Positions 8,188 to 18,630 of a DNA stretch of 64,000 bases are shown here, piece after piece. Position numbers and translations under genes: made by a program. The notes below the pieces were generated by a model. It had not been told where the DNA came from. It searched no databases and was given only the letters and a program-made list of their open reading frames with translations. The DNA is from Escherichia coli (GTDB lineage: Bacteria; Pseudomonadota; Gammaproteobacteria; Enterobacterales; Enterobacteriaceae), in assembly GCF_017348835.2 (NCBI RefSeq), contig NZ_CP071375.1; one strand, 5' to 3'. Positions within the stretch are counted from its first letter, which is position 1; every line of letters starts with the position of its first letter.

Positions 8188-9852
8188 TTACTTATACGCC
8201 GACTGGTGAACACCAACCGCGCGACCAGACGGATCGTCCATTTTCTTGAACGCTTCATCCCATTCGATCGCTTTAGCGGAAGAACACGCGACGGAAGGAC
8301 CGCCCGGCACGCACTCAGCGGCACTCGGAAGCGGGAATAGTTCTTCAAAGATCTCCCGGTACAGATACGCTTCTTTTGAGGTCGGTGTGTTGTACGGGAA
8401 GCGGAAGCGGGCAGTTTCCAGCTGTTGATCAGAAACCTGCTGCGCCGCCACTTCTTTCAGGGTGTCGATCCAACTGTAACCGACGCCATCGGAGAACTGC
8501 TCTTTCTGCCGCCAGGCCACGCTTGCGGGCAGGTATGACTCAAAACATTCACGCAGGATGTGTTTTTCCATCTTGCCGTTACCGCACATTTTATCCTGCG
8601 GGTTAATGCGCATCGCCACGTCGAGGAATTTCTTGTCGAGGAACGGAACGCGTGCTTCCACGCCCCAGGCTGACATCGCTTTGTTGGCACGGGCGCAGTC
8701 ATACATATGCAGGGCCAGCAGTTTACGCACCGTCTCTTCATGCAGTTCTTTGGCATTCGGTGCTTTGTGGAAGTAAAGATAACCGCCAAACACTTCATCA
8801 GAACCTTCACCGGACAGCACCATTTTAATGCCCATCGCTTTGATCTTACGCGACATTAAATACATCGGTGTTGAAGCGCGAATAGTGGTCACATCATAGG
8901 TTTCGATGTGGTAAATCACGTCGCGGATGGCGTCCAGACCTTCCTGTACAGTGAAGTGAATTTCATGATGCACAGTGCCCAGATGGTTTGCCACTTCCTG
9001 GGCTGCTTTCAGATCCGGTGAACCCGGCAGACCTACAGCAAAGGAGTGTAACTGCGGCCACCAGGCTTCAGAGCGTTCCTGATCTTCCACGCGACGGGCT
9101 GCGTATTTCTTGGTGATAGCGGAAATAATTGAGGAATCCAGACCACCAGAAAGCAGCACACCGTAAGGCACATCAGACATCAGATGGCTTTTAACGGAAT
9201 CTTCCAGAGCCTGACGCAGCTCGTTTTTGTCGGTGACATTATCTTTCACCGCATCGTAGTCGAACCAGTCGCGATGATAATAAGAACGGATTTCGCCGTC
9301 CTGACTCCACAAATAGCTCCCCGCCGGGAACTCTTTAATCGTGCGGCATACCGGCACGAGGGCTTTCATTTCTGAGGCCACATACAGCTGACCATGTTCG
9401 TCATAGCCCATATACAGTGGGATGATCCCCAGATGGTCGCGACCAATCAGGTAGGCATCTTTTTCGCTGTCGTACAGGGCAAAGGCAAACATGCCCTGCA
9501 AGTCGTCGAGAAATTCCGGCCCTTTTTCCTGATACAGCGCGAGGATCACTTCACAGTCAGACCCTGTCTGGAACTGATAACGATCGCCGTATTCAGCGCG
9601 CAATGCCTGGTGATTGTAGATTTCACCGTTTACCGCCAGTACGTGGGTTTTTTGTTGGTTGTAGAGAGGTTGCGCCCCCGCGTTAACGTCAACAATTGAC
9701 AGACGTTCGTGGGCGAGAATGGCGTTATCACTGGCATAAATACCGGACCAGTCCGGGCCACGATGACGCATCAGGCGTGACAGCTCGAGTGCTTTCTTAC
9801 GCAGCTCAACTGCGTCTGTTTTGATATCGAATACGCCAAAAATTGAACACAT
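8188..9852 (-). CDS. asnB: asparagine synthetase B (glutamine-hydrolysing)
   Basis: The ORF track gives 581 aa; the conserved N-terminus MCSIFGVFD, with the catalytic Cys2 of class II amidotransferases, starts at ATG 9852, giving 554 aa. Confidence 0.95.
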   Translation of the reverse strand: MCSIFGVFDIKTDAVELRKKALELSRLMRHRGPDWSGIYASDNAILAHERLSIVDVNAGAQPLYNQQKTHVLAVNGEIYNHQALRAEYGDRYQFQTGSDCEVILALYQEKGPEFLDDLQGMFAFALYDSEKDAYLIGRDHLGIIPLYMGYDEHGQLYVASEMKALVPVCRTIKEFPAGSYLWSQDGEIRSYYHRDWFDYDAVKDNVTDKNELRQALEDSVKSHLMSDVPYGVLLSGGLDSSIISAITKKYAARRVEDQERSEAWWPQLHSFAVGLPGSPDLKAAQEVANHLGTVHHEIHFTVQEGLDAIRDVIYHIETYDVTTIRASTPMYLMSRKIKAMGIKMVLSGEGSDEVFGGYLYFHKAPNAKELHEETVRKLLALHMYDCARANKAMSAWGVEARVPFLDKKFLDVAMRINPQDKMCGNGKMEKHILRECFESYLPASVAWRQKEQFSDGVGYSWIDTLKEVAAQQVSDQQLETARFRFPYNTPTSKEAYLYREIFEELFPLPSAAECVPGGPSVACSSAKAIEWDEAFKKMDDPSGRAVGVHQSAYK

Positions 9853-10098
9853 AACCTTCTCCGTTAACCTGGTATTTGTTGCTTGTTGTGTTTGCTTGTT
9901 TAAAAAAATGCCGCAAAGCAGCACTGTGCGCAAGCGATTTGGCGGTGAAAAAATAAAAAACGTAATGGTGATTGCTGATTTGTGAAAAAGGGGAGGGTGC
10001 GGTGATGTATTTATTAATGGATCGATAATTTTTGGCGGGTTTTATTGAATGTTTATATTTTACGGGGGCCAAATTGCTGACAAAGTGCGATTTGTTCA

Positions 10099-10198
10099 TG
10101 CCGGATGCGGCGTGAACGCCTTATTCGGCCTACAAAAGCATGAAAATTCAATAAATTGCAGGAGCTGCGTAGGCCTGATAAGCGTAGCGCATCAGGCA
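10099..10198. repeat. BIME / RIP-like element (two inverted REPs with a conserved linker)
   Basis: REP tgccggatgcggcgtgaacgccttattcggcctac and inverted REP gtaggcctgataagcgtagcgcatcaggca separated by a linker containing aattcaataaattgcagga. Confidence 0.75.
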
Positions 10199-10248
10199 GT
10201 TTGGCGTTTGTCATCAGAGCCAACCACGTCCGCAGACGTGGTTGCTAT

Positions 10249-11001
10249 TCAGATAACGTCGATTTCAGCGACCGATGGGTAAATCCAGCTGGGGCGGAAC
10301 GGCATACTGTCGATATCGTCGAGCGATGAAACACCAGAGAGCACCAGAATCGTCTCCAGACCTGCCTGGAAGCCGGCCAGAATATCGGTACGCAGGTTAT
10401 CGCCGACAATCACCGTTTCTTCCGAATGTGCCTGCATTTTGTTTAATGCCGCGCGGATAATCCACGGACTCGGCTTACCAACATAGAACGGTTTACGCCC
10501 GGAGATTTTTTCGATCCCTGCACACAACGCGCCACAGGCGGGATAAAAACCGCGCCCGTGGGTGTCCGGGTTGGTGGCGATAAAACGTGCACCGTTAGCG
10601 ACGAAATAGGCCGCTTTATGCATCATGTCCCAGTTGTAGGAACGCGTTTCGCCAACAATCACAAAATCAGGGTTCACATCGGTAATAGTGAAACCGGCTT
10701 TGTACAGTTCATGAATCAGTGCGCCTTCGCCCACCACATACGCTTTCTTGCCTTCCTGGCGACGCAGGAAATCGGCGGTCGCCATCGCAGAGGTATAAAA
10801 CACGCTGTCAGGTACATCGACACCGGCAGTGGCAAAGCGGTTCGCCAGATCCTGCCCGGTCTGCGAAGGATAGTTGGTCAGCAACACCAGCGGCAGGCCT
10901 TTATCCATAATCCCGTGCAAAAATTCCGCTGCACCCGGTACGGCGACGTTATCGTGCATCAGCACGCCGTCGATATCGCAAATTACATTTTTAATGGTCA
11001 T
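10249..11001 (-). CDS. nagD: UMP phosphatase NagD/UmpH (HAD superfamily)
   Basis: 250-aa ORF with HAD motif I DIDGVL; last gene of the nagBACD operon. Confidence 0.93.
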   Translation of the reverse strand: MTIKNVICDIDGVLMHDNVAVPGAAEFLHGIMDKGLPLVLLTNYPSQTGQDLANRFATAGVDVPDSVFYTSAMATADFLRRQEGKKAYVVGEGALIHELYKAGFTITDVNPDFVIVGETRSYNWDMMHKAAYFVANGARFIATNPDTHGRGFYPACGALCAGIEKISGRKPFYVGKPSPWIIRAALNKMQAHSEETVIVGDNLRTDILAGFQAGLETILVLSGVSSLDDIDSMPFRPSWIYPSVAEIDVI

Positions 11002-11048
11002 GGACTACCCAGAATATTGACAACAATAAGCGCCACTATAAAAGCACA

Positions 11049-12269
11049 TTAATTTTCCAGCAAATGCTGGAGCAAAATACCGTTGAGCATGGCGCGTTTT
11101 ACCAGCGCAAAAGCGCCGATTGCCGAGCGGTGATCCAGCTCAGAACGTACCACCGGCAGATTAGTACGAAACGCCTTCAGCGCCTGGGTATTAATGCAGC
11201 TTTCAATAGCAGGGAGCAGCACTTTATCGGCTTCGGTGATTTCACCGGCAATAACAATTTTTTGCGGATTAAATAAGTTGATAGCAATGGCGATGGTTTT
11301 GCCCAGATGACGACCGACATACTCAATCACTTCCGAGGCCAGGCTATCGCCTTTGTTCGCGGCTTTGCAGATAGTTTTGATGGTGCAGTCGTCCAGCGGC
11401 ACGCGGCTCTGGTAGCCCTGCTTTAACAGATTCAACACCCGTTGTTCAATGGCAGCGTTGGCGGCGATAGTTTCCAGGCAGCCAAAGTTGCCGCAGTGGC
11501 AGCGTTCACCCAGCGGTTCGACCTGAATATGGCCAATTTCACCGACGTTGCCGTTGCGGCCAATAAAAATGCGCCCGTTAGAGATAATCCCGGCCCCGGT
11601 TCCGCGATGGACACGCACCAGAATGGAGTCTTCGCAATCCTGACTTGCACCGAAGTAGTGCTCTGCCAGCGCCAGACTACGGATATCGTGGCCGACAAAA
11701 CAGGTCACTTTAAAACGCTCTTCCAGTGCTTCTACCAGCCCCCAGTTTTCCACCTGAATATGCGGCATGTAATGAATTTTGCCGCTGTCCGGGTCAACAA
11801 GTCCAGGCAGGATCACGGAAATGGCGATCAGCTCGCGCAGCTTGCGTTGGTAGCTATCAATAAACTGAGCAATGGCATTCAGCAGGGCATGTTCCAGCGT
11901 CTGCTGGGTACGTTCCGGCAGCGGGTAATGTTCTTCTGCCAGCACTTTGCTGCTGAGATCAAACAGAGTGATGGTGGCGTCATGACGACCAAGCCGTACG
12001 CCGATTGCGTGGAAATTGCGGGTTTCGGTGACGATAGAGATAGCGCGGCGGCCCCCGGTGGAGGCCTGCTGATCAACTTCTTTGATCAGCCCGCGTTCGA
12101 TAAGCTGACGCGTAATTTTGGTTACGCTGGCGGGGGCAAGCTGGCTTTGCTCGGCAATCTGAATCCGCGAGATTGGCCCGTACTGGTCAATCAGGCGATA
12201 AACCGCCGCGCTGTTAAGCTGTTTTACGAGATCAACATTACCTATCTGAGCTTGTCCGCCTGGTGTCAT
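11049..12269 (-). CDS. nagC: N-acetylglucosamine repressor NagC (ROK family)
   Basis: 406-aa ORF with an N-terminal HTH and a ROK sugar-kinase-like domain carrying a CxCGxxGC zinc motif. Confidence 0.95.
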   Translation of the reverse strand: MTPGGQAQIGNVDLVKQLNSAAVYRLIDQYGPISRIQIAEQSQLAPASVTKITRQLIERGLIKEVDQQASTGGRRAISIVTETRNFHAIGVRLGRHDATITLFDLSSKVLAEEHYPLPERTQQTLEHALLNAIAQFIDSYQRKLRELIAISVILPGLVDPDSGKIHYMPHIQVENWGLVEALEERFKVTCFVGHDIRSLALAEHYFGASQDCEDSILVRVHRGTGAGIISNGRIFIGRNGNVGEIGHIQVEPLGERCHCGNFGCLETIAANAAIEQRVLNLLKQGYQSRVPLDDCTIKTICKAANKGDSLASEVIEYVGRHLGKTIAIAINLFNPQKIVIAGEITEADKVLLPAIESCINTQALKAFRTNLPVVRSELDHRSAIGAFALVKRAMLNGILLQHLLEN

Positions 12270-12277
12270 ACTTTCTC

Positions 12278-14286
<2,009 letters not shown>

Positions 14287-18447: not shown

Positions 18448-18610
18448 TGCCGGATGGGGCGTTTACGTCGCATCCGGCAAGGAACAGACAAACAGTTTCA
18501 AACGCTAAATTGCCTGATGCGCTACGCTTATCAGGCCTACATGATCTCTGCAATATATTGAGTTTGCGTGCTTTTGTAGGCCGGATAAGGCGTTCACGCC
18601 GCATCCGGCA
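18448..18610. repeat. BIME cluster (three REP units)
   Basis: Three REP palindromes in alternating orientation: gccggatggggcgtttacgtcgcatccggca, gcctgatgcgctacgcttatcaggcctac, gtaggccggataaggcgttcacgccgcatccggca. Confidence 0.75.
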
Positions 18611-18630
18611 AGAAATATGCAAACAATCCA

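Follow-up and report, generated by a model that had tools for sequence, protein, structure and literature searches.

The hairpin next to the nagD stop codon of Escherichia coli as the probable stem of an intrinsic terminator that lost its U-tract to a BIME-1-containing block

The hairpin that follows the nagD stop codon in the analysed region of the Escherichia coli genome (a stretch of 64,000 nucleotides, hereafter the window) is, in all likelihood, the stem of the ancestral terminator of nagD and hence of the nagBACD operon. The U-tract of this terminator appears to have been taken by a 159-nt block that contains a BIME-1 repeat element, leaving behind a hairpin that is now probably largely vestigial, with the 3' end of the transcript probably moved to another site.

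The region 8188-14286 of the window encompasses asnB, nagD (umpH), nagC, nagA and nagB, all on the minus strand; nagD is the final gene of nagBACD, and its TGA stop codon occupies 10251-10249. A 601-nt segment surrounding the hairpin is 100% identical to the corresponding sequence of strain PE164 and 96.5% identical to that of K-12 MG1655. From the nagD stop codon through the proximal REP of the block described below, the K-12 sequence is identical to that of the window, and window coordinates were obtained from those of NC_000913.3 by subtracting 689325. The two features at the center of this analysis are:

10249..11001, minus strand: nagD (umpH) coding sequence, from the list of open reading frames and from RefSeq annotation of E. 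coli records that match the sequence exactly or almost exactly.
10218..10246, minus strand: hairpin, probably an orphaned terminator stem, from the repeat finder, RNA folding, homology with terminators composed of a hairpin and a U-tract, and covariation.

The initial annotation of this DNA was right in placing here an inverted repeat with a 4-nt loop (10231-10234) that is far from chance expectation, but the details of the stem and its span had to be revised. Instead of a perfect stem of 13 bp, for which the arms that were quoted comprise 13 nt (left) and 12 nt (right), the repeat finder delineated a perfect stem of 10 bp (CAACCACGTC / GACGTGGTTG, 10221-10230 and 10235-10244, 100% complementary), beyond which 2 outer pairs form only when one C, at position 10220 or 10221, is bulged. 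Accordingly, the element ends at 10246 rather than at 10247, and it is not one base away from the nagD stop codon: the outermost pair is 2 nt and the perfect stem 4 nt from it. The predicted folding energy is -18.4 kcal/mol on the nagD-sense strand and -16.4 kcal/mol on the other strand (z about -5 for both), and none of the 200 shuffled sequences folded as well. Perfect hairpins of at least 10 bp occupy 8 loci in the window, compared with about 0.7 expected in Markov-1 random sequence, and most of the others are terminator-like. The nagD hairpin itself has the GC-rich stem (about 5-14 bp) and short loop of an intrinsic terminator and lies where such a terminator is expected, on the sense strand downstream of a transcription unit. 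We also considered and rejected the possibility that the hairpin is a REP or BIME unit: it lacks the REP consensus (a GTAG...CTAC-type foot), E. coli genomes carry only one copy of the hairpin region, the window contains no second one, and a permissive Rfam scan of positions 9500-10700 gave no match at the hairpin, the only matches (ES036 and a weak naRNA4) being BIME-related.

The stem is conserved far beyond E. coli. We collected the nagD loci from 80 species representatives of Enterobacteriaceae and read 110 nt after each stop codon. In 41 of the 80 loci, a T-rich tail (typically TTTTTCATTTT) comes after a homologous hairpin of the form AACCACGYC, loop, GRCGTGGTT, with the homologous hairpins starting 2-7 nt after the nagD stop codon. 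The species with both the hairpin and the tail include E. albertii, a genome of an Escherichia cryptic clade and Citrobacter amalonaticus, as well as members of Enterobacter, Lelliottia, Leclercia, Klebsiella, Raoultella, Kosakonia and Atlantibacter. In an alignment of 50 sequences, 94.3% of the cells of the 10-pair stem are paired, a proportion that falls to 35-52% once the partner is shifted by 1-3 columns. Both sides have changed in 5 of the 10 stem pairs (35 cells), one pair varying between C-G (22), U-A (18) and U-G (5), and the observed covariation score was reached in 0 of 500 shuffles; the loop is free to vary in both sequence and length (3 to 6 nt). The initial annotation had held that a lack of covariation would speak against the stem, and compensatory changes are what we found. 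This is the pattern of an RNA helix under selection which, together with its U-tract, makes up an intrinsic terminator. The U-tract form appears, by parsimony, to be ancestral because the outgroups, namely E. albertii, the Escherichia cryptic clade and the other genera, carry it.

In about 25 of the 80 species, the CCACG hairpin is missing, and REP-like palindromes begin within about 5-15 nt of the nagD stop codon; these loci (L008, L011-L015, L017-L027, L030-L032, L039, L040, L044 and L064) belong to Citrobacter, Salmonella, Pseudocitrobacter, Trabulsiella and Yokenella. A different arrangement is seen in Superficieibacter sp. 1612_C1 (locus L069, 3253-3600), where the homologous hairpin is kept and is followed by a GC-rich insert (CAGACGGCTGCCAGCATGGCC...) without a U-tract; the insert is free of noteworthy ORFs, and asnB comes next in the usual way. 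The Superficieibacter locus is an independent case of U-tract loss at the same junction, and the end of the nagD operon has been remodelled several times by repeat elements.

Within E. coli, alignment of the nagD-asnB spacer from five strains resolved two forms. In the short form (O157:H7 and WGS1363), TTTCTTATTTTTA comes immediately after the same hairpin, and the two together read as a textbook intrinsic terminator. In the long form (the window, K-12 and strain 100248), a 159-nt block is found in place of 19 nt (TCTTATTTTTACCCATCAT). The long form is present in 2279 of the 5426 complete E. coli genomes (about 42%) and the short form in 3095 (57%); the latter figure is the number of complete genomes in which the hairpin is followed by UUUCUUAUUUUU or UUUUUCAUUUU, as it also is in the 41 of 80 Enterobacteriaceae species. 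The stem of WGS1363 shows a compensatory change from U-A to C-G, and that of strain 100248, a long-form strain, an uncompensated A-to-C change. Each of the two forms is found with either loop variant (TGCG or TCAG), and strain O177:H21 (L087) carries the exact hairpin of the window, including the TGCG loop, followed by the U-tract TTTCTTATTTTTA. In about 2000 long-form genomes, the hairpin is intact and nearly invariant, which fits recent common descent but also retained function. Because the 159-nt block, complete with its unique flanks, is also found in E. whittamii, it most likely arose once and would be common to this species and the long form of E. coli through descent or recombination.

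The block and its parts are as follows:

10063..10221, minus strand: 159-nt block in place of the presumably ancestral 19-nt U-tract segment (TCTTATTTTTACCCATCAT), from alignments of the long and short forms.
10095..10210, minus strand: BIME-1 core consisting of the proximal REP, L linker and distal REP, from self-BLAST and the published definition of BIME-1.
10169..10197, minus strand: proximal REP, sense strand GCCTGATGCGCTACGCTTATCAGGCCTAC, from its sequence, the inverted repeat formed with the distal REP and partial naRNA4 Rfam matches.
10134..10168, no strand assigned: L linker (35 nt), from an IHF-like motif in the sequence and an Rfam match.
10100..10133, minus strand: distal REP, sense strand GTAGGCCGAATAAGGCGTTCACGCCGCATCCGGC, inverted, from its sequence and a naRNA4-like Rfam match.
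10063..10094, minus strand: right flank of the block, present only in long-form genomes, at one place per genome in 2223 genomes.

BIME-1 has been defined as a REP, an L linker with an IHF site and an inverted REP, and such elements (RIBs) lie at the 3' ends of transcription units (PMC3333891). The core of the element next to nagD has a second copy in the window at 18499-18614 (89% identity in self-BLAST), and its linker contains ATTCAATAAATTG, one mismatch away from the IHF core WATCAANNNNTTR. It is thus the adjacent block, and not the hairpin, that has the multicopy character of REPs. Beyond the core, 43 nt of the block are unique sequence, split into a left flank of 11 nt and a right flank of 32 nt; a search of E. 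coli genomes for another copy of the right flank found it only at this locus. Because the right flank is single-copy and confined to the long form, the event was not a bare insertion of a BIME. The block and the 3' arm of the hairpin are directly adjacent, and the leading G of the block forms a pair with the C that precedes the old stem; because of this additional G-C pair, the stem comprises 10 bp rather than 9. For the entire 3' UTR, the predicted fold consists of the hairpin and a long REP-REP helix (-63.7 kcal/mol).

Several smaller observations concern the block. In the long form, the last nagD codons together with the stop codon (GUUAUCUGA) are predicted to pair with the left flank of the insert (CUCUGAUGAC; window 10210-10260, minus strand), and the resulting outer helix would surround the hairpin, with the stop codon inside. 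In addition, an inverted counterpart of the sequence TGATGACAAA, namely TTTGTCAGCA, is located across the BIME at 10075-10084. The Rfam family ES036 (CssrF sRNA) matches positions 10134-10176 on the plus strand with 42.3 bits, compared with a gathering score of 37.6; the match lies on the BIME-1 linker, so that this family apparently models the linker of a repeat element.

Intrinsic termination by E. coli RNA polymerase needs a U-tract. The tail that follows the stem in the window, GCTCTGATGA, contains 3 T among 10 nt, as against 8 of 10 in the short alleles, and intrinsic terminators are characterized by about 7-8 nt of U-rich sequence immediately following the stem. Such a tract is present in short-form E. 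coli and in the orthologues from 41 of the 80 species and is absent from the window. A score of the d'Aubenton-Carafa type ranges from -18 to -38 here and from +14 to +44 in the short alleles and orthologues, values that are indicative only, the formula having been combined with modern folding energies. With these 3 T of 10 on the sense strand, and with no call at the nagD hairpin in the scan for terminator and promoter consensus sequences, the observation of the initial annotation that neither strand carries a U-run holds. Its judgement that the hairpin is unlikely to be an intrinsic terminator is also sound for this strain, given the missing U-tract, the negative score and the read-through in K-12 described below, but it misses the probable origin of the structure as the stem of a conserved terminator.

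Published transcript ends of K-12 bear directly on the fate of the hairpin, and the relevant positions downstream of it are the following:

10096, minus strand: equivalent of the K-12 nagD transcript 3' end (NC_000913.3 699421), from PMC6131387 and the coordinate offset.
9926..10095, minus strand: C-rich, G-poor stretch, a candidate Rho-utilisation region, from sense-strand composition (51 C, 15 G).
9900..9925, minus strand: terminator-like hairpin (AGTGCTGC-TTT-GCGGCATT, 9925-9907) with a T7 run (9906-9900), from the terminator scan.

The Rich_TTS table of the SMRT-Cappable-seq study (Yan et al. 2018, PMC6131387) lists a primary transcript that extends from a TSS at 700354 to a TTS at 699421 and covers only b0675. 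Among the 31 reads that start at this TSS in rich medium, 11 stop at 699421, another 3 stop no more than 50 nt downstream and a single read continues past (PMC6131387). Thus, in these long-read data, which represent one internal promoter and one condition, at least 15 of the 31 reads pass the hairpin; the other 16 end upstream of 699421 at unreported positions and might include a minor 3' end at the hairpin. The mapped 3' end is located 4 nt after the stem of the distal REP and 122 nt beyond the hairpin. Neither of the two K-12 data sets (PMC6131387, PMC7815308), which are sparse, has a 3' end called at the hairpin, and, within the limits of these sparse data, K-12 transcripts of identical sequence do not show the 3' ends in a U-tract that mark an intrinsic terminator. 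In particular, the tables of Adams et al. (2021, PMC7815308) contain no Term-seq 3' end in the nagD-asnB spacer; this is probably due to low nag expression and is neutral with regard to the end at the REP. The initial annotation had favoured a 3' stabilising structure or an RNase processing site, naming transcript ends away from the hairpin as evidence against this view. K-12 3' ends indeed do not map at the hairpin and, with the sole mapped end lying this far downstream, the proposal gains no positive support here. Literature searches on RNase III with nagD, or on nagBACD transcripts, returned nothing relevant.

Downstream of the BIME, the sequence has properties compatible with Rho-dependent termination. 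On the sense strand, the C/G ratio of the 170 nt that follow the BIME is 3.4, which is rut-like, and the excess of C over G is found only beyond the BIME. An 'orphan' Rho termination region has been reported on the same strand at K-12 position 699190 (Rho score 3.17, p = 6.8e-11, 800-nt windows; PMC7815308). This position is equivalent to window position 9865, 13 nt upstream of the asnB start codon, and the signal could reflect read-through from nagD or else attenuation in the asnB leader or ORF. As modelled by Peters et al. and by Dar and Sorek (PMC6061677), Rho terminates transcription diffusely downstream, and exonucleases trim the transcript back to a stable stem-loop, often a REP; U-less stem-loops and REPs mark the trimmed 3' ends of Rho-terminated transcripts (PMC6061677). 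One REP has been described in a recent preprint as a partly Rho-dependent attenuator and stabiliser. In the long form, 3'-end formation has probably shifted to the BIME and the C-rich, Rho-sensitive region downstream of it.

Taken together, these observations suggest the following history. In the ancestral state, a hairpin 2-7 nt after the nagD stop codon and the U-rich tract next to it would have formed an intrinsic terminator that closed nagBACD. In the lineage of the window, the 159-nt block, that is, BIME-1 with its short unique flanks, would then have replaced the 19-nt U-tract segment. Judging from the established mechanism of intrinsic termination, the hairpin should still form on the nascent RNA but would not efficiently release RNA polymerase because the U-tract is missing, so that transcripts would run on past the hairpin and across the BIME. 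Their stable 3' end would then lie at the distal REP, as in the published K-12 data, probably as a result of diffuse Rho-dependent termination in the downstream C-rich region and subsequent 3'-to-5' exonucleolytic trimming to the REP, and the terminator-like hairpin in front of the asnB start site might provide a further stop. The nagD hairpin of the long form would accordingly be a retained relic that serves, at most, as a second barrier to exonucleases.

This history has to be weighed against readings that assign the long-form hairpin a current role. The hairpin might be a functional U-less protective stem-loop, or an RNase processing site, that sets the stability of nagD mRNA. We consider this improbable although worth entertaining, given that the hairpin is stable at -18.4 kcal/mol, that its stem is intact in the sampled long-form genomes, that the long form has an additional G-C pair as well as a predicted outer helix formed with the insert flank, and that 16 of the 31 K-12 reads end at unreported positions upstream of the REP site. 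However, a structure of this kind should combine a stable stem lacking a U-rich tail, which is found here, with a steady-state 3' end at the stem, which is not found in K-12: neither data set has a 3' end at the hairpin, and the mapped end is at the distal REP. Furthermore, the stem of strain 100248 has acquired an uncompensated A-to-C change, and recent common descent can account for the conservation among long-form genomes. A weak intrinsic terminator or a hairpin-dependent pause site that operates despite the missing U-tract is harder still to reconcile with the data, considering the 3 T of 10 after the stem, the negative score, the 15 or more of 31 K-12 reads that pass the hairpin and the well-established dependence of intrinsic termination by E. 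coli RNA polymerase on the U-tract. In its favour, the strength of the stem equals that of working orthologues, and inefficient intrinsic terminators with Rho backup have been discussed as transition states (Dar and Sorek, PMC6061677).

The other alternatives place the function of the repeat outside of termination. Located 4 nt past the stop codon, the hairpin might impede the terminating ribosome and so lower the output of NagD. The short distance from the stop codon is conserved (2-7 nt for the homologous hairpins among the 80 loci examined), and the predicted outer helix of the long form takes in the stop codon. A precedent also exists, as Liang, Rudd and Deutscher (in Mol Cell, 2015) reportedly found that REPs within 15 nt of a stop codon lower output. 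Terminators near stop codons are common, though, and the compactness of operon ends also explains such closeness, so we give this effect on translation only a slim chance. Finally, we attach almost no weight to the idea that the palindrome acts at the DNA level, for instance by binding a dimeric protein or extruding a cruciform, or has come about by chance. A perfect 10-bp inverted repeat with a 4-bp spacer would suit a DNA site, but compensatory changes in the stem combined with a free loop are the hallmark of an RNA helix rather than of a DNA site recognized by its sequence; only one copy is present in E. coli and, with about 0.7 such hairpins expected per window, this one is positioned exactly at the end of a gene.

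Like the intrinsic terminators of Enterobacteriaceae, to which it is homologous, with covariation of the stem, the hairpin is a GC-rich sense-strand stem-loop that immediately follows the terminal gene of an operon; unlike them, it is devoid of a U-tract in the window, and K-12 transcripts with the same sequence do not end there. It shares intrinsic-terminator energetics, the lack of a U-tract and the presence of C-rich sequence further downstream with the U-less Rho-dependent stem-loops (Dar and Sorek 2018, PMC6061677), but in K-12 the steady-state 3' end is found at the REP, 122 nt downstream, and not at the hairpin. The inserted block has the same architecture and 3'-end location as the BIME-1 / RIB (RIP) elements, whereas the nagD hairpin is not a REP, and the block differs from these elements by its 43 nt of unique flanks. 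Terminators have been predicted to switch class when the number of uridines behind the stem changes (Dar and Sorek 2018, PMC6061677). The nagD end is such a switch of terminator class, brought about by repeat insertion rather than by point mutation.

Taken by itself, the hairpin is unremarkable for a gene end, being a member of a well-known class that has been disabled, and the polymorphism that it exemplifies is of a known type: the presence or absence of BIMEs was reportedly recognized by Bachellier et al. in 1997 as a source of intergenic polymorphism in E. coli. What the locus offers is a worked example of how a U-less hairpin by a stop codon can arise via the insertion of a repeat element into an intrinsic terminator, such that the same operon end has two architectures of termination and 3'-end formation in one species. 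It also calls for caution in annotation because, when viewed in a single genome, such a hairpin may not be recognized as the disabled copy of a canonical terminator. The two forms are a natural allelic pair for tests of terminator type against mRNA stability, of asnB read-through and of REP function. Beyond this, we tentatively suggest, as a proposal more apt to fail than to hold, that this common within-species polymorphism of the spacer makes up an allelic pair for a switch between intrinsic and Rho-dependent, REP-stabilised 3' ends, with effects on nagD mRNA stability and read-through into asnB. A bolder version of this proposal would have the junctions between terminator hairpins and U-tracts as preferred landing sites for REP/BIME and other small elements, which would explain the repeated remodelling of this operon end (REP-like ends in about 25 of the 80 species and the Superficieibacter insert).

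In addition to the hairpin, several other elements of the nag-asnB region deserve mention. The K-12 asnB TSS at 699222 (PMC6131387) corresponds to window position 9897, with the asnB ATG at 9852. The terminator-like element at 9900-9925 ends 3 nt before this TSS equivalent, overlaps the expected asnB -10 region and is conserved in all aligned Escherichia forms; it might shield asnB from transcription coming through from nagD, or it may be no more than part of the promoter. A literature search combining nagD, asnB and terminator found only the prediction of a Shigella sRNA, 'Ssr4', in the nagD/asnB spacer of S. flexneri, which was derived from promoter and terminator predictions and is listed without RT-PCR confirmation (PMC4782007, Table 1). 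Within the operon, Term-seq 3' ends have been reported inside nagC and nagA (K-12 701367-701370 and 701696, minus strand; PMC7815308), which hints at processing or premature termination. A block of the spacer at about 10005-10051 (minus strand, CATTCAATAAAACCCGCCAAAAATTATCGATCCATTAATAAATA) is conserved across genera, taking the form CATCTAATAAAA ... ATTGAATAATCATCAATAAA in Enterobacter, Klebsiella and others; it is located more than 100 nt upstream of the asnB TSS and may be a candidate regulatory site of asnB.
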